A DNA stretch of 64,000 nucleotides, taken from assembly GCF_003018255.1 (NCBI RefSeq), contig NZ_CP027440.1; one strand, 5' to 3'. Source of the DNA: Escherichia coli (lineage in GTDB: Bacteria > Pseudomonadota > Gammaproteobacteria > Enterobacterales > Enterobacteriaceae). The translations under genes were made by a program, and so were the position numbers. Of the stretch, positions 1-6,850 are shown in pieces (position 1 is the stretch's first letter; each line of letters opens with the position of its first letter). A model generated the notes under the pieces. The model was not told where the DNA came from and did not search any database. It saw only the letters and a list, made by a program, of their open reading frames with translations.

Positions 1-113
1 CGGTCTACGTAGTCATGTCCGGGGAGATAAAGCTGGTCAGAAGGAATAGTCATACAACGGTGCTGTAAAAGGTTGTCGGCGTCTTTGCCAAGCAACTGCG
101 CAATATCTGTCAT
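1..113 (-). CDS. fbaB: Fructose-bisphosphate aldolase class I, N-terminal fragment (gene runs off the window start)
   Basis: Reverse complement of 1..113 translates MTDIAQLLGKDADNLLQHRCMTIPSDQLYLPGHDYVDR, which I recognise as the FbaB N-terminus; ATG is at complement 111..113. Confidence 0.8.
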   Translation of the reverse strand, partial: MTDIAQLLGKDADNLLQHRCMTIPSDQLYLPGHDYVD

Positions 114-369
114 TACTATGCTCCCGTAAATTCCGATTGGATATCGGCTATGGATTGTCCTGGCCCGCCTTTTGCGGGCAATCATAATCCTGGTCGTTAC
201 AGGCGAGTTTTTCCATCTTTTGGATGTTTTTTCAGCGTTTTCTGTTGGCTCGATTCATCAGAAAAAATGTTACCGCGGTCAAGTTTTCACCGCAAAGGTA
301 TTTAAAAGGTATTATTAAATGGTATTGTCATCGCGTACCTTACATTACCTGTCATGAAGGAATTAAAAG

Positions 370-1647
370 ATGAAAACAACAGCAAAGCTGTCGTTCATGA
401 TGTTTGTTGAATGGTTTATCTGGGGCGCGTGGTTTGTGCCATTGTGGTTGTGGTTAAGTAAAAGCGGTTTTAGTGCCGGAGAAATTGGCTGGTCGTATGC
501 CTGTACCGCCATTGCGGCGATCCTGTCGCCAATTCTGGTTGGCTCCATCACTGACCGCTTTTTCTCGGCGCAGAAAGTGCTGGCGGTATTGATGTTCGCT
601 GGTGCGGCGCTGATGTATTTCGCTGCGCAACAGACCACTTTTGCCGGGTTCTTCCCGTTACTGCTGGCCTACTCGCTAACCTATATGCCGACCATTGCGC
701 TGACTAACAGTATCGCTTTTGCCAACGTGCCGGATGTGGAGCGTGATTTCCCACGCATTCGTGTGATGGGCACTATCGGCTGGATTGCCTCCGGTCTGGC
801 ATGTGGATTTTTGCCGCAAATGCTGGGTTATGCCGATATCTCTCCGACTAACATCCCGCTGCTGATTACCGCCGGAAGTTCTGCTCTGCTCGGTGTGTTT
901 GCGTTTTTCCTGCCCGACACGCCGCCAAAAAGCACCGGCAAAATGGACATTAAAGTCATGCTCGGCCTGGATGCGCTGATCCTGCTGCGCGATAAAAACT
1001 TCCTCGTCTTTTTCTTCTGTTCATTCCTGTTTGCGATGCCACTGGCGTTCTATTACATCTTTGCCAACGGTTATCTGACAGAAGTCGGCATGAAAAACGC
1101 CACCGGCTGGATGACGCTCGGCCAGTTCTCTGAAATCTTCTTTATGCTGGCATTGCCGTTTTTCACTAAACGCTTTGGTATCAAAAAGGTATTGTTGCTT
1201 GGTCTGGTCACCGCTGCGATCCGCTATGGCTTCTTTATTTACGGTAGTGCGGATGAATATTTCACCTACGCGTTACTGTTCCTCGGCATTTTGCTGCACG
1301 GCGTCAGTTACGATTTTTACTACGTTACCGCTTACATCTATGTCGATAAAAAAGCCCCCGTGCATATGCGTACCGCCGCGCAGGGGCTGATCACGCTCTG
1401 CTGCCAGGGCTTCGGCAGTTTGCTCGGCTATCGTCTTGGCGGTGTGATGATGGAAAAGATGTTCGCTTATCAGGAACCGGTAAACGGACTGACTTTCAAC
1501 TGGTCCGGGATGTGGACTTTCGGCGCGGTGATGATTGCCATTATCGCCGTGCTGTTCATGATTTTTTTCCGCGAATCCGACAACGAAATTACGGCTATCA
1601 AGGTCGATGATCGCGATATTGCGTTGACACAAGGGGAAGTTAAATGA
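370..1647 (+). CDS. yegT: Nucleoside permease, NupG/XapB-like MFS transporter
   Basis: 425-aa ORF on the track, multi-pass hydrophobic, ATG at 370; position after fbaB matches K-12 yegT. Confidence 0.85.
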   Translation: MKTTAKLSFMMFVEWFIWGAWFVPLWLWLSKSGFSAGEIGWSYACTAIAAILSPILVGSITDRFFSAQKVLAVLMFAGAALMYFAAQQTTFAGFFPLLLAYSLTYMPTIALTNSIAFANVPDVERDFPRIRVMGTIGWIASGLACGFLPQMLGYADISPTNIPLLITAGSSALLGVFAFFLPDTPPKSTGKMDIKVMLGLDALILLRDKNFLVFFFCSFLFAMPLAFYYIFANGYLTEVGMKNATGWMTLGQFSEIFFMLALPFFTKRFGIKKVLLLGLVTAAIRYGFFIYGSADEYFTYALLFLGILLHGVSYDFYYVTAYIYVDKKAPVHMRTAAQGLITLCCQGFGSLLGYRLGGVMMEKMFAYQEPVNGLTFNWSGMWTFGAVMIAIIAVLFMIFFRESDNEITAIKVDDRDIALTQGEVK

Positions 1648-2648
1648 AAACAGAACGTATTCTCGGTGCTCTTTATGGGCAGGCGTTAGGGGATGCGATG
1701 GGGATGCCCTCCGAGCTTTGGCCGCGCAGTCGCGTCAAAGCACACTTTGGCTGGATTGACCGTTTTCTGCCTGGGCCAAAGGAGAATAACGCAGCCTGTT
1801 ATTTTAACCGCGCCGAATTCACCGACGATACCTCGATGGCGCTGTGTCTGGCGGATGCGTTACTGGAACGTGAAGGCAAGATCGATCCGGATCTGATTGG
1901 GCGTAATATTCTCGACTGGGCGCTGCGTTTCGACGCCTTTAACAAAAACGTACTAGGTCCGACCTCGAAGATTGCTCTCAACGCCATTCGCGACGGTAAA
2001 CCCGTTGCTGAACTGGAAAACAACGGCGTGACCAACGGCGCAGCGATGCGCGTCTCGCCATTAGGTTGTTTGCTTCCGGCGCGTGATGTTGATTCCTTTA
2101 TTGATGATGTGGCGCTGGCCTCCAGCCCGACACATAAATCCGATCTGGCGGTTGCGGGGGCGGTAGTCATCGCATGGGCGATTTCTCGTGCCATTGACGG
2201 AGAAAGCTGGTCAGCGATTGTTGATTCACTGCCTTCAATTGCGCGACATGCTCAACAAAAACGCATCACTACCTTCAGCGCCTCACTGGCAGCACGTCTG
2301 GAGATTGCGCTGAAAATTGTGCGCAATGCCGACGGCACCGAATCCGCCAGCGAACAGCTTTACCAGGTCGTTGGCGCAGGTACCAGCACTATTGAGTCCG
2401 TTCCGTGCGCCATTGCGCTGGTTGAACTGGCACAAACCGACCCGAACCGTTGCGCCGTCCTGTGCGCTAACCTTGGCGGCGACACAGACACCATCGGTGC
2501 TATGGCGACGGCAATTTGCGGCGCGTTGCATGGCGTTAATACTATCGATCCTGCGTTAAAGGCGGAACTGGATACAGTAAATCAGCTTGATTTCAACCGC
2601 TATGCCACGGCGCTGGCGAAGTATCGCCAACAACGGGAGGCGATATGA
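1644..2648 (+). CDS. yegU: ADP-ribosylglycohydrolase family protein
   Basis: 334-aa ORF; start overlaps the yegT stop by 4 nt (ATGA), suggesting translational coupling; position matches K-12 yegU. Confidence 0.8.
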   Translation: MKTERILGALYGQALGDAMGMPSELWPRSRVKAHFGWIDRFLPGPKENNAACYFNRAEFTDDTSMALCLADALLEREGKIDPDLIGRNILDWALRFDAFNKNVLGPTSKIALNAIRDGKPVAELENNGVTNGAAMRVSPLGCLLPARDVDSFIDDVALASSPTHKSDLAVAGAVVIAWAISRAIDGESWSAIVDSLPSIARHAQQKRITTFSASLAARLEIALKIVRNADGTESASEQLYQVVGAGTSTIESVPCAIALVELAQTDPNRCAVLCANLGGDTDTIGAMATAICGALHGVNTIDPALKAELDTVNQLDFNRYATALAKYRQQREAI

Positions 2649-3610
2649 GCGGCGCTCGATTACACACGCTGCTGCCTGAATTAACCTCGCGTCAGCCAGT
2701 TATGGTGATTGGCGCGGCGGTCATTGATGTGATCGCCGACGCTTATGCCCTCCCCTGGCGTGGGTGCGATATCGAACTGAAACAGCAGAGCGTTAACGTT
2801 GGCGGCTGTGCACTGAATATTGCCGTGGCATTAAAGCGCCTCGGCATCGAAGCGGGTAATGCCTTGCCGCTCGGTCAGGGGGTGTGGGCGGAGATTATTC
2901 GCAACCGGATGGCAAAAGAGGACTTAATCAGCCTGATCGATAACGCCGAAGGTGATAACGGCTGGTGTCTGGCGCTGGTTGAGCCTGATGGCGAACGCAC
3001 TTTTATGTCATTCAGCGGTGTGGAAAATCAGTGGAATCGCCAGTGGCTGGCGCGATTAACCGTTGCGCCTGGCAGCCTGCTCTATTTTTCCGGTTATCAA
3101 CTGGCCTCGCCCTGCGGCGAATTGTTAGTGGAATGGCTGGAAAAGCTGCAAGACGTGACGCCGTTTATCGATTTTGGCCCACGTATTGGCGATATCCCGG
3201 ATGCATTACTGGCGCGGATCATGGCCTGTCGACCTTTAGTGTCACTCAATCGTCAAGAGGCTGAGATTGCCGCCGAACGTTTTGCTTTATCCGCAGAGAT
3301 AACAACACTTGGCAAGCAATGGCAGGAGAAATTTGCCGCGCCGTTGATCGTTCGTCTCGATAAAGAGGGCGCATGGTATTTCAGCAACGACGCTTCTGGC
3401 TGCATTCCGGCATTTCCAACGCAAGTTGTAGACACCATTGGGGCGGGCGACAGTCATGCCGGTGGCGTACTTGCCGGGCTGGCCTCTGGTCTGCCACTGG
3501 CGGATGCCGTATTACTGGGCAATGCAGTGGCGTCGTGGGTTGTCGGGCATCGGGGCGGTGATTGTGCGCCAACGCGCGAGGAACTACTCCTCGCACACAA
3601 AAACGTATAG
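2645..3610 (+). CDS. yegV: PfkB/ribokinase-family sugar or nucleoside kinase
   Basis: 321-aa ORF with the PfkB-type motif DTIGAGDSHAGG near the C-terminus; 4-nt overlap with the yegU stop. Confidence 0.8.
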   Translation: MSGARLHTLLPELTSRQPVMVIGAAVIDVIADAYALPWRGCDIELKQQSVNVGGCALNIAVALKRLGIEAGNALPLGQGVWAEIIRNRMAKEDLISLIDNAEGDNGWCLALVEPDGERTFMSFSGVENQWNRQWLARLTVAPGSLLYFSGYQLASPCGELLVEWLEKLQDVTPFIDFGPRIGDIPDALLARIMACRPLVSLNRQEAEIAAERFALSAEITTLGKQWQEKFAAPLIVRLDKEGAWYFSNDASGCIPAFPTQVVDTIGAGDSHAGGVLAGLASGLPLADAVLLGNAVASWVVGHRGGDCAPTREELLLAHKNV

Positions 3611-4330
3611 ATCGCTGCGACAGTGGCTGATGCTGTACTCAATAGGCCGTTGCTGTTGGTCAAGCGCCACTTGCTTGATCACCAGCACCGGTATTTTGCT
3701 ATCTAACTGAATATGTGACTGAAACTCGGCATCCGGCATCCGGGCGCTAACGCGGGAACGCGTACGTTGTGGGTAAATGTGCTGGCTGCGGAAGTAGTCA
3801 TAAAGAGAAATCCCGATGGCATCAACATCATGAATTAAATGTGCCGGAACCCACGATTCCTCAATCGATACCGCCTCTTCATCGACATAGCGAATACGCT
3901 TAAGCAAAAAGACATCACTTCCCGCTTCGACCGCCAGCTGCTGCGCGACTTCTTCGGGACATTTCACGACACGCTTGTTAACCCATAACGTATCGGGCTT
4001 TTTCCCGCGCAATACCACCTGCTGAGAAAACCCCCGCGCTTCTTTCAGCGAGTATTCGAAGATGTTGTTGATCTGCGTGCCGTAACCACGCGAACGCGTC
4101 ACCACGCCCTCTTCTTCCAGCGACTGCATCGCCTTGCGCACCGTAATGCGCGAAACGCCGGTTAACTGACTTAAATCACGCTCACCGGGCAAAATATTGC
4201 CATGCTCCAGCACCCCGCTGCGCACGGCATTTTTTACCGTTTCGGCAAACTTAATATAAAGCGGCGTGTTATCCGCCGCTAAAATACGCTCGTTCAGTTG
4301 GGCAATCAGCTGGGTATGCGCTTGTTCCAT
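3584..4330 (-). CDS. yegW: GntR/HutC-family transcriptional regulator
   Basis: 248-aa ORF with an N-terminal winged-HTH region (LPGERDLSQLTGVSRITVRKAMQSL) and a UTRA-like C-terminal half; 3' end overlaps yegV convergently by 27 bp. Confidence 0.8.
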   Translation of the reverse strand: MEQAHTQLIAQLNERILAADNTPLYIKFAETVKNAVRSGVLEHGNILPGERDLSQLTGVSRITVRKAMQSLEEEGVVTRSRGYGTQINNIFEYSLKEARGFSQQVVLRGKKPDTLWVNKRVVKCPEEVAQQLAVEAGSDVFLLKRIRYVDEEAVSIEESWVPAHLIHDVDAIGISLYDYFRSQHIYPQRTRSRVSARMPDAEFQSHIQLDSKIPVLVIKQVALDQQQRPIEYSISHCRSDLYVFVCEE

Positions 4331-4381
4331 TTGTCTTTTTCCTGCCGGGGAATCTGGTGGGAGTATATCACTGCTTCTTAT

Positions 4382-5200
4382 TTAAGGCGTTTCTTTAATC
4401 CCATCAACGAATGCCTGCAACTCCTCCACCGTGCCATTAAACACATTAAAATCCACCGGACCATTAATGCCATCGACCTGTCCACGGTCGGAATGCTGCC
4501 AGAAGCGCCAGGCCATGCCGTCATTGTCCGGGCGACGTTGATAATAGTGAGCCACCCACCACGGATATTCATTGAAATAGCCCGCCAGATTGGTGTGATA
4601 AAAAACGGCTCCTGAGTAAATAATTGGCTTTTTACCCGTACGTTTTTCGACCATTTTTAGCCACTGACTTACCCGCTTGCGTAATTCTTTTGCCGATAAT
4701 TTTCCCCGTTCTTCTACGTCCAGCACGGCAGGGAAATCGCCTTGTGAGAAATCCACCGTTTGCAGAAATAATCTCGCCTGAACTGAAGCAGATACCGACG
4801 GGGAAAAATAATGATACGCCCCGCGCAGCAGGCCATTTTCGCGGCTTAGTTGCCAGTTACGCGAAAAATAGGGGTCCACCAGCTTTTCGCCTTCCGTCGC
4901 CTTAATAAAAGCAAACTGTAAGCGGATACCGTTGTCGCGCATTTTTGCCACACGCTGCCAGTCGATCCGCTCCTGCCAGCGTGAAACATCTATTCCGTGA
5001 ATGGTGTAACTGGCAGGAATGCGAATAGCGAAAGATTTAACCGGGCGATAACCGTAGAAGTGGATGTAGTCTTTAATCTGAATTGCTGTCGAATAGAAAA
5101 AATTCACCGTCTGACGCGGATAAATTGCAACGATGGAAATTAGCCCAAGAGCGCATAATAAAACGGTGAATTTTTTTCGACTGGTGATTCTCAACTGCAT
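4382..5200 (-). CDS. yegX: Membrane-anchored glycoside hydrolase family 25 (lysozyme-like) protein
   Basis: ORF 4382..5209; start set at the internal Met (MQLRITS...) to give 272 aa, matching my recollection of K-12 YegX; N-terminal TM segment. Confidence 0.65.
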   Translation of the reverse strand: MQLRITSRKKFTVLLCALGLISIVAIYPRQTVNFFYSTAIQIKDYIHFYGYRPVKSFAIRIPASYTIHGIDVSRWQERIDWQRVAKMRDNGIRLQFAFIKATEGEKLVDPYFSRNWQLSRENGLLRGAYHYFSPSVSASVQARLFLQTVDFSQGDFPAVLDVEERGKLSAKELRKRVSQWLKMVEKRTGKKPIIYSGAVFYHTNLAGYFNEYPWWVAHYYQRRPDNDGMAWRFWQHSDRGQVDGINGPVDFNVFNGTVEELQAFVDGIKETP

Positions 5201-5264
5201 TGGTTTCATCCCTGAATGTCAGCACCAAAGGCTGACAATAACCAAAGCAGCTATAGTACGGTGC

Positions 5265-6065
5265 TCACCACCAGGCGTGGAAGTGGTGAACCGGACCAAT
5301 ACCGTGACCAACTTCCAGCGTGTCGGCCTGGGCTAATGCCGATGAAAGCCAGCTTTTTGCCTCCTGTACGGTGTCAGCCCAGTTTGTATGGCGCGGGCGT
5401 AGTGCAGCCAACGCCGCAGAGAGCGTACAACCAGTGCCGTGGGTGTTTTTGGTCATAATGCGCGGTGCAGTAAATCGTTGTTCCCCCTCACGAGTAAACA
5501 GCCAGTCCGGGCTTTGCTCATCATCCAGATGACCACCTTTCATTAGCACTGCGCCACAGCCCATCACCAACAGCGATCGCCCTTGTTCCAGCATTTCCTG
5601 TTCGGTGCGCGCGTGTGGCGCGTCGAGCAAGGCGGCTGCTTCGGGCAAGTTTGGCGTTATTAATGAAACATGTGGCAATAATCGACTGCGCAGCGTAGCA
5701 ACCGCCGAAGGTGAAAGCAGCGGGTCGCCGCTTTTTGCCAGCATAACGGTGTCGAGTACCACGTTTTGGATCTGATAACGTTGCAACCGTTCTGCCACCG
5801 CTTCAACAATATCGGTTTCCGCCAACATACCGATTTTAGTGGTGTCGATTCGCACATCACTGAACACCGAATCGAGCTGGGCGGCGACAAAATCAGGCTC
5901 AATGCGATACACCGACTGTACACCACGGGTATTTTGCGCCACCAGTGCAGTAATAACTGAGCAACCATAAGCGCCAAGTGCCGAGAAGGTTTTAAGATCG
6001 GCCTGAATCCCCGCACCACCACTCGGATCAGTACCGGCAATCGTCAGAGCGTTAATTCGTTTCAT
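5265..6065 (-). CDS. thiD: Hydroxymethylpyrimidine/phosphomethylpyrimidine kinase
   Basis: 266-aa ORF starting [27 protein letters not shown], a typical ThiD N-terminus; overlaps thiM by 4 nt. Confidence 0.9.
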
Positions 6066-6850
6066 GCCTGCACCTCCTGCGTCAATTGCCAGAGCGCATC
6101 AAGGAAATGTGGAACAAAACTGCCTGGCCCCTCGCTTCTGGCAACTGCGCGTTCTCCGGCTTGTTTCATCCAGTGACAGGCAGATGCGATATTTTCCAGC
6201 GTATCGCCTGGTAGCGCACAACAGGCAGCGACAACCGCCGATAGTGCACAGCCAGTTCCTACCACTTTGGCCATTAGCGGATCGCCACCGTGAATGCCAA
6301 CGGTGCGACGACCATCGGTAACATAATCCACCTCGCCAGTGACCACGACGATTGCGCCAGTTTCCCGTGCCAGTGTTTGTGCAGCGGGTATCGCATTAGC
6401 TGCGGCGTCAGTGGTATCCACTCCCCGTCCACCATTAGCAACGCCAGCTAATGCCATGATTTCCGAAGCATTACCACGTATGGCGGTTGGCTTATGGGAC
6501 AGAAGTTCCACACAAAAACGGCGGCGATAATCGAGCGCACCAACCGCAACCGGATCAAGCGTCCAGGGCGTTTGTGATCGTGTTGCTTGCTCAACGGCAG
6601 CACTCATCGCTTGCGCTCGTGGCTGCGTCAGTGTGCCAACGTTAATCAGCAACGCACTGGCGATAGCCGCAAACTGACTGGCTTCTTCGGTTTCGATAAC
6701 CATCGCTGGCGATGCACCGAGCGCCAGCAAGGTATTGGCAGTAAAGGTTTGCACCACATCGTTGGTCATACAGTGCACAAGAGGGGAATGTTGGTGAAAA
6801 AGGTGTAACGCGTGCGCAGATTGCGCTGAACTCAGCAGGTCGACTTGCAT
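6062..6850 (-). CDS. thiM: Hydroxyethylthiazole kinase
   Basis: 262-aa ORF directly downstream of a TPP riboswitch and upstream of thiD. Confidence 0.9.

Follow-up and report, generated by a model that had tools for sequence, protein, structure and literature searches.

The yegTUV operon and its convergent regulator gene yegW (ggaR) lie between positions 370 and 4330 of a 64,000-nt stretch of Escherichia coli DNA (contig NZ_CP027440.1 of RefSeq assembly GCF_003018255.1), here called the window. We propose that the three proteins of yegTUV act in sequence on a non-canonical riboside, or on some similar glycoside. YegT would import the riboside together with a proton, YegV would phosphorylate its primary 5′-hydroxyl, and the two-metal centre of YegU would then grip the cis-2′,3′-diol and hydrolyse the C1′ bond, releasing ribose 5-phosphate and the aglycone. 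We assign this scheme of import, 5′-phosphorylation and C1′ hydrolysis a probability of roughly 0.6. Operon anatomy, repression by the single-target regulator GgaR through two binding regions, the in vitro response to ADP-glucose, the glycogen phenotype and the failure of YegT with canonical nucleosides were established by others; from the comparisons below we infer the order of the reactions, the type of YegU substrate and the operator sequence.

The three operon genes are read from the plus strand. yegT (370..1647) encodes a 425-aa NHS-family, NupG-like proton symporter; yegU (1644..2648) a 334-aa di-metal glycohydrolase of the ADP-ribosylglycohydrolase (ARH) fold, which we propose to be a phospho-riboside glycosidase; and yegV (2645..3610) a 321-aa PfkB kinase of the ribokinase-proximal clade, a proposed riboside 5′-kinase. 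On the minus strand, yegW (3584..4330) encodes a 248-aa GntR/HutC-family repressor with a UTRA effector domain. ATGA sequences at 1644-1647 (yegT/yegU) and 2645-2648 (yegU/yegV) form 4-nt overlaps of stop and start codons, and the 3′ ends of yegV and yegW share 27 bp on opposite strands (3584..3610). The initial annotation had described both kinds of overlap, and they are recovered here from the open reading frame (ORF) coordinates and from direct reading; its family assignments (permease, ADP-ribosylglycohydrolase-like, PfkB and GntR) likewise hold, with Pfam matches to all four proteins. Shine-Dalgarno-like sequences, GGGGAAG within yegT (1632-1638) and GGGAGG within yegU (2635-2640), lie 4-7 nt ahead of the yegU and yegV starts, and translational coupling at both overlaps is plausible.

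The yegTUV–yegW locus is part of the E. coli core genome: the 5.4-kb block is found in 5420 of 5426 complete genomes, and the four genes sit at the same offsets in the RefSeq annotation of a 99.9% identical chromosome. Comparison of 13 loci from seven enterobacterial genera (Escherichia, Citrobacter, Superficieibacter, Pseudocitrobacter, Enterobacter, Mangrovibacter and Pectobacterium) shows no variation in either of the 4-nt overlaps or in the 27-nt convergent one, an arrangement kept by selection and not by chance. The yegV–yegW pair is a listed RNA-seq excludon (PMC12288877). No terminator-like hairpin was seen between the two genes, and therefore read-through from the derepressed operon could oppose yegW expression.

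YegT matches the entire Pfam Nuc_H_symport profile (PF03825, 1.6e-183; positions 1-400 of 400) and scores 653.9 against a cutoff of 446.1 on TIGR00889 (nucleoside permease subfamily). It is the only protein of the four to pass a curated NCBIfam cutoff; on the equivalog models, YegU, YegV and YegW each fall far under every cutoff. A crystal structure of YegT(K267A) has been reported at 3.1 Å (Xiao et al. 2025; PMC11979927), and G311, D315, E255 and K267 of the window protein agree with its numbering. YegT shares its fold with the nucleoside:H+ symporters NupG and XapB, together with the GxxxD motif of transmembrane helix 10 (TM10), formed by G311 and the protonatable D315. It differs from them in overall identity (~27%) and in its base contacts, since F143, Y318, F322 and N228 of NupG are not conserved (PMC11979927). 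It also differs in that neither binding nor uptake of canonical nucleosides has been detected: isothermal titration calorimetry gave no significant signal with uridine, adenosine, cytidine or guanosine (PMC11979927), and in a 2024 study none of gemcitabine, xanthosine, uridine and cytidine was taken up (PMC11241209). Truncations of yegT have been reported in Salmonella Typhi (PMC9241588).

The pocket of YegV, a PfkB protein by Pfam (1.6e-55), was analysed in an alignment of 47 ARH-adjacent kinases. G53-G54, N202/E205 and D269, corresponding to the GG, NxxE and DTxGAGD (catalytic base) motifs, are conserved in 44-47 of the 47. The ribokinase RbsK binds ribose through Asn14, Asp16, Gly42, Lys43, Asn46, Glu143 and Asp255, with Asn14 and Lys43 part of the hydrogen-bond set that holds the free sugar (PMC9604405). 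Equivalents of RbsK D16, G41-G42, N46, D255, N187 and E190 are kept, essentially invariant, throughout the alignment. The N14 equivalent is V26 in YegV and always hydrophobic among the relatives, while the K43 equivalent is C55, a Cys in 35 of the 47 and never a Lys. After the GG, pseudouridine kinases carry Val42 (E. coli PsuK) or Ile10 (the plant enzyme) (PMC9247573). Such kinases must leave room at C1′. With an incomplete ribose-binding set and a score of 81.5 against the 299.65-bit cutoff of the ribokinase model TIGR02152, YegV looks like a ribofuranoside 5′-kinase rather than a ribose kinase; it is still listed as an uncharacterised sugar kinase (De Crecy-Lagard et al. 2025). Cys55, Cys108 and Phe120, which have no ribokinase counterpart, are conserved near the predicted sugar/aglycone pocket of the ARH-linked kinases. 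The earlier suggestion that the substrate may be an unusual nucleoside is strengthened by this riboside-kinase-like pocket and by the indifference of YegT to canonical nucleosides (PMC11979927, PMC11241209).

YegU has ADP_ribosyl_GH as its sole Pfam match (6.7e-66), and its AlphaFold model (predicted local distance difference test score, pLDDT, 97.1) adopts the ARH fold. In Foldseek comparisons, the model superposes on MJ1187 (1t5j) with a TM-score of 0.81, on ARH3 and DraG with 0.72-0.78, and also on the Thermus ARH (TM-scores across matches 0.72-0.81). The best solved match, MJ1187, is itself without an assigned function, and no solved structure of YegU or YegV with a ligand was found. The metal ligands and the Glu-flap glutamate of ARH3 (E41, T76-D77-D78 and D314/D316/T317) correspond to YegU E24, T60-D61-D62 and D280/D282/T283; in 28 YegU relatives, D61 and D282 never vary, and conservation of T60, D62, D280 and T283 reaches 90% or more. 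In ARH enzymes, this metal centre holds the cis 2″,3″-hydroxyls of the distal ribose, a grip that explains their selectivity for α-1″ linkages, and ARH3 additionally clamps adenine between Phe143 and Tyr149 (PMC7050489). The clamp positions align to YegU N126 and V129, beside a 3-residue deletion, and are unconserved.

YegU thus resembles ARH1, ARH3, DraG, Tri1 and MJ1187 in fold, metal ligands and Glu-flap glutamate. It is set apart from them by the absence of a conserved adenine-stacking pair, by invariant residues specific to its own subfamily (GP(S/T)(S/T)K at 105-109, H164 and R218), by scores far under the cutoffs of the DraG and Tri1 equivalog models (80 against 337 bits and 69 against 490 bits, respectively), and by its place in a catabolic operon beside transporter and kinase genes. 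We read YegU as a competent ribosyl-C1 hydrolase from which the adenosine site, at least in its ARH3 form, appears to have been lost. Since adenine is bound in another way by ARH1 and DraG, the missing ARH3 clamp leaves some ADP-ribose binding possible. A kept metal site combined with a lost clamp would fit a substrate of the form ribose-5-phosphate-X, the expected product of a 5′-kinase.

The pairing of hydrolase and kinase extends far beyond E. coli. A phmmer scan of 1.84 billion representatives (E<=1e-30) returned 232 YegU relatives, and in some of them the ARH and PfkB domains are fused, in both orders, as PfkB-ARH proteins of ~600-640 aa and ARH-PfkB proteins of 664-758 aa. Genomes scanned with the alignment of 28 YegU relatives yielded 78 loci, whose gene content was recounted by tblastn; they come from Enterobacterales, Vibrio, Bacilli, Lachnospiraceae, Negativicutes, Lactobacillales, Actinobacteria, Pseudomonas, Rhizobiales, Chloroflexi and Thaumarchaeota. 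A PfkB gene lies within 4 kb of the YegU relative in 61 loci, the other 17 having none in that span, and a GntR/UTRA gene is present in 47. The transporter is of the NHS type at 18 loci, NCS1 at 23 and PnuC-like at 13, and all 53 loci with any of these three types also carry PfkB. Individual contexts that combine ARH and PfkB include an NCS1 permease, sometimes with a PNP_UDP_1 phosphorylase, an ECF transporter, and a phosphopentomutase-like gene with DeoC; the thaumarchaeal loci have an MFS sugar-type transporter. The PnuC-like protein scores 144 bits against the permissive 42-bit cutoff of TIGR01528, and Pnu-type facilitators rely on a trapping kinase. The initial annotation had envisaged uptake and salvage of an unusual, possibly modified or ribosylated, nucleoside; a conserved, sometimes fused pair that travels with nucleoside-, nucleobase- and vitamin-type transporters favours this view, of which the functional part still stands as a proposal.

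At three loci (L064, L075 and L081), a BglG-type antiterminator gene and a phosphotransferase system (PTS) EIIBCA gene lie directly 5′ of the ARH gene, and PfkB is absent. The PTS phosphorylates its substrate on entry, so that one component would have replaced both transporter and kinase, as fits a hydrolase needing a phosphorylated compound. These PTS-linked cassettes (L064 6903-10818; L081 8080-10963; L075) belong to Lachnospiraceae, Enterococcus pallens and Helcococcus. The YegV pocket, the exchange of kinase for PTS and the PnuC-like association lend indirect support to an order in which the kinase acts before a glycosidase that would need the 5′-phosphate.

The steps could also run the other way, with YegU splitting the unphosphorylated imported riboside and YegV phosphorylating the freed ribose. 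Fusion and co-location of the two genes leave the step order unfixed, and the YegV family profile finds its best PDB matches among true ribokinases (7e-42). Several observations count against this order, which we regard as unlikely. RbsK N14 and K43, ligands of free ribose, are absent from all 47 relatives of YegV, and YegV falls far under the ribokinase equivalog cutoff. E. coli already has RbsK. The PTS-linked relatives of YegU lack any kinase gene, and known ARH substrates bear a 5″-phosphate.

Other loci depart from the common cassette. At five rechecked loci (L029, L031, L056, L062 and L087), tblastn found no YegV match. Two of them look decayed: Brenneria roseae (L029) retains the ARH gene, the GGTAT repeats described below and only a fragment of yegW, and Edwardsiella hoshinae (L031) has ARH and GntR genes without a transporter or kinase. 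In Blautia and Lachnospiraceae (L071 and L084), ABC permeases and a PfkB gene are found beside two ARH genes, one of which encodes a 715-aa protein whose ARH domain is N-terminal and whose long C-terminal part is unassigned; the 692-aa protein P0163 has two tandem ARH domains. Four Chloroflexi loci (L066, L073, L074 and L079) carry more distant ARH genes, whose neighbours, as judged by eye, are an FGGY-type kinase in place of PfkB, an ABC sugar transporter, a probable SorC-type regulator and a TIM barrel protein resembling xylose isomerase; these loci probably represent a different substrate class. At L014, an isochorismatase-family gene (1555-2136) overlaps translationally between the NCS1 permease gene and the ARH-PfkB fusion. 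It was considered as a nicotinamidase and rejected, with 25.6 against 174 bits on the PncA model and, by eye, no PncA-like metal motif; it therefore gives no evidence for nicotinamide riboside, and the aglycone in this organism may carry a hydrolysable amide. No further aglycone-acting enzyme was found among the recurrent neighbours, the other recurrent clusters being lineage-specific synteny (fbaB, yegS and thiDM) or transporters and regulators. Rfam searches gave no riboswitch or leader adjoining the operon in window positions 1-5400 at E<=1, and none adjoining the operons at the gathering score in 16 related loci without a GntR match in the vicinity of the ARH gene. The riboswitches that did turn up, of the THF and TPP classes, belong to other genes and therefore give no clue to the ligand.

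YegW combines an N-terminal winged helix-turn-helix (wHTH; GntR, PF00392, 2.5e-16) with a C-terminal UTRA domain (PF07702, 2.3e-36). By chromatin immunoprecipitation on arrays (ChIP-chip), Saito et al. (2024) found YegW, which they studied as GgaR, bound only at fbaB/yegT, its single target (PMC10819704). Electrophoretic mobility shift assays (EMSA) placed one site in the 190-bp region ahead of yegT (probe-2) and a weaker one, bound at higher GgaR amounts, in yegT ORF nt 571-869 (probe-5) (PMC10819704). The operon is co-transcribed as a single ~3.3-kb mRNA on Northern blots; by Northern blot and RT-qPCR this mRNA is undetectable in the wild type and ~30-fold up in a yegW deletion (PMC10819704).

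No operator motif is given in the GgaR paper (PMC10819704), and we propose a conserved GGTAT-repeat operator on the basis of sequence conservation. The candidate (294..339, plus strand) lies within the 190-bp probe shifted by GgaR and contains three direct copies of GGTATT (297-302, 308-313 and 321-326; spacings of 11 and 13 bp), followed by an inverted GTACC at 335-339. The repeats overlap the −10 hexamer (TATTAT, 310-315) of a promoter-like element for yegTUV (286..315, plus strand; −35 TTCACC at 286-291), which comes from a consensus scan whose sites were no more numerous than in shuffled sequence; the candidate −10 falls within the conserved GGTATTAT repeat. Across the 64 kb of the window, GGTATT-N5-GGTATT (one mismatch allowed) has two matches, in the spacer and at 1177-1193, against 0.22 expected by chance, and these fall inside the two published GgaR probes; the pattern was picked after the spacer repeats had been seen, and the cross-species test outweighs this window count. 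In that test, 17 loci, ranging from Escherichia to Vibrio, have GGTAT-N6-GGTAT ahead of the operon and 5 have it at the intragenic position, with only 4 further occurrences in 1.44 Mb (rough uniform-composition expectation ~2.7), and a 9-species alignment shows the repeats as invariant islands in an otherwise variable spacer. The repeats were not seen by NCS1- or PnuC-type cassettes outside Enterobacterales and Vibrio.

The second, weaker candidate GgaR site, GGTATCAAAAAGGTATT (1177..1193, plus strand), corresponds to yegT ORF nt 808-824 and lies inside probe-5. GgaR would keep the operon almost silent through direct repeats that overlap the −10 and through a weaker site in yegT. Directly upstream of the promoter-like element is a CRP-like site, AAATGTTACCGCGGTCAAGTTT (265..286), with the core TGTTA (268-272), N6, TCAAG (279-283), in which TGTTA and G.TCA show no change across the nine aligned species. 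An fbaB<CRP>yegT site is listed from genomic SELEX (systematic evolution of ligands by exponential enrichment; Shimada 2011, PMC3105977) and probably corresponds to bases 268-283.

The published functional model is built on this regulator (Saito et al. 2024). It holds that YegT imports ADP-glucose or a precursor, that YegU and YegV process ADP-sugars, and that GgaR senses ADP-glucose and thereby sets glycogen. In EMSA, ADP-glucose at 10-100 µM, and neither ADP nor glucose, frees GgaR from the promoter probe; the yegW mutant accumulates more glycogen, roughly double at 6 h, and grows poorly on minimal glucose, and an earlier screen found a yegV deletion low for glycogen (PMC10819704). The EMSA of YegW on the yegT promoter with candidate effectors, named in the initial annotation as a check, is therefore already in the literature. 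Against this model, the effector test covered three compounds only, and a rise in glucose from 0.25% to 1% increased operon expression only ~3-fold, compared with 30-fold for the deletion. ARH enzymes cut at the ribose C1″ and not at the glucosyl-phosphate bond (PMC7050489), and YegU lacks the ARH3 adenine clamp. In many phyla the pair travels with PnuC-like, NCS1, ECF and PTS transporters, which are not known nucleotide-sugar importers, and the model is hard to reconcile with these partners. The glycogen effect could be indirect, arising from overexpression of a kinase and a hydrolase. We consider the ADP-glucose model, which is based on the three-compound EMSA and on phenotypes of a derepressed mutant, improbable.

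The remaining alternative takes the annotation of YegU at face value, as an enzyme that reverses macromolecule ADP-ribosylation like DraG, ARH1/3 or Tri1 and is unrelated to its neighbours; despite the Pfam match, the intact metal site and the ARH fold, this is very improbable, given scores far under the DraG and Tri1 cutoffs, the missing ARH3 clamp, the overlap of yegU with transporter and kinase genes, its fusion to the kinase in other organisms, and recurrent neighbours among which no ADP-ribosyltransferase gene was noticed, though no search was aimed at one.

Several points weigh against the import–phosphorylation–hydrolysis scheme itself. The literature searched holds no paper that assigns an activity to YegU or YegV and none that links ADP-ribosylglycohydrolase with PfkB or PnuC. 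The sole effector identified by experiment is ADP-glucose, active in EMSA in the micromolar range given above, and the sole phenotypes are those of the yegW mutant, which accumulates glycogen and grows slowly. To our knowledge, the characterised ARH-family enzymes all act on ADP-ribosyl conjugates, and we therefore found no precedent for a mononucleotide-type substrate. The closest PDB matches of the YegV profile are ribokinases, as noted, and the RbsK E143 position is variable in the 47 relatives, with Glu in 11 and A154 in YegV. With only 33-36% identity to YegU, the three ARH proteins linked to a PTS may have some other glycoside as substrate. As for the GGTAT pair inside yegT, it is conserved in 5 loci but encodes the conserved peptide FGIKKVL, and it may be kept only for these residues. 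Under the favoured scheme, GgaR probably responds to the substrate, or to the phosphate ester of the substrate, as its true inducer, which ADP-glucose may partly mimic.

The proposed logic has a close counterpart in the E. coli pseudouridine system PsuT/PsuK/PsuG (yeiM-yeiC-yeiN), which likewise joins a dedicated transporter, a PfkB kinase making a 5′-monophosphate and a glycosidase releasing ribose 5-phosphate. YegV shares with PsuK the pocket pattern of Asp, GG, Asn and catalytic Asp with no Lys after the GG. The systems differ in that YegU, though it may function in the manner of PsuG, is an ARH-fold di-metal enzyme outside the PsuG family and fold, and in that YegT is an NHS and PsuT a CNT transporter; pseudouridine is absent from the compounds reported for the YegT assays (PMC11979927, PMC11241209). 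If the scheme holds, the novelty would be PsuK/PsuG logic carried out with an ARH-fold glycosidase. The PTS-linked relatives, in which antiterminator and EIIBCA genes precede the YegU relative, recall the phosphorylate-then-hydrolyse logic of bglGFB-type operons, but their hydrolase is of the ARH fold and not a GH1 or GH4 phospho-glycosidase, and E. coli yegTUV uses a symporter and a soluble kinase with no PTS.

Among HutC-subfamily regulators, YegW resembles MngR/FarR, PhnF and NagR in its wHTH and UTRA domains and in the local repression of an adjacent catabolic operon. It differs in its effector, so far ADP-glucose, in a candidate operator whose units are repeated directly, 11 and 13 bp apart, and do not form a short palindrome, and in a gene that is convergent with the operon and overlaps it. 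We take the tandem GGTATT repeats to resemble the TGTATTA-type direct repeats reported for FarR/MngR.

Three groups of candidate substrates are offered as leads only. α-Anomeric ribosides, such as α-ribazole-type cobamide lower-ligand nucleosides, are included because the characterised ARH enzymes select α-1″ linkages; the others are non-aromatic N-ribosides, such as dihydrouridine, and pyridinium ribosides, such as nicotinamide riboside, through the PnuC-like link.

The operon is flanked by fbaB on one side and by yegX-thiD-thiM on the other, as in the RefSeq annotation of the 99.9% identical chromosome. The 5′ end of fbaB (class I fructose-bisphosphate aldolase; 1..113, minus strand) is a divergent neighbour that leaves the window; its reverse translation reads MTDIAQLLGKDADNLLQHRC, and RefSeq agrees. 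yegX (GH25 lysozyme-like; 4382..5200/5209), thiD (5265..6065) and thiM (6062..6850) all lie on the minus strand, with a 4-nt mutual overlap of thiD and thiM and a TPP riboswitch annotated upstream of thiM in RefSeq. This neighbourhood is syntenic within Enterobacteriaceae only and looks unrelated to yegTUV. By eye, an extended −10-like element, TGaTATACT (4362-4370, minus strand), sits ~30 nt ahead of the yegW start codon, in the 51 bp that separate yegW from yegX, so that yegW may have its own promoter rather than depend on read-through from yegX.

yegTUV is among the remaining E. coli core-genome operons without an assigned function, and its hydrolase–kinase pair is spread through gut Firmicutes, Actinobacteria, Pseudomonas and ammonia-oxidising archaea. 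As a tentative extension, with the odds somewhat against it, YegU-type proteins may be the first ARH-fold enzymes to act on a small phosphorylated riboside instead of ADP-ribosylated macromolecules, forming with YegV a second widespread kinase-then-nucleotide-glycosidase route for ribosides that ordinary hydrolases and phosphorylases cannot cleave. If the scheme is true, the indifference of YegT to canonical nucleosides would be explained, and the published link between ADP-glucose and glycogen would possibly be indirect. The ARH fold would gain a metabolic role outside ADP-ribosylation signalling, and many bacteria would be competing for a nutrient or salvage stream of a riboside that lies outside the reach of the standard nucleoside enzymes.

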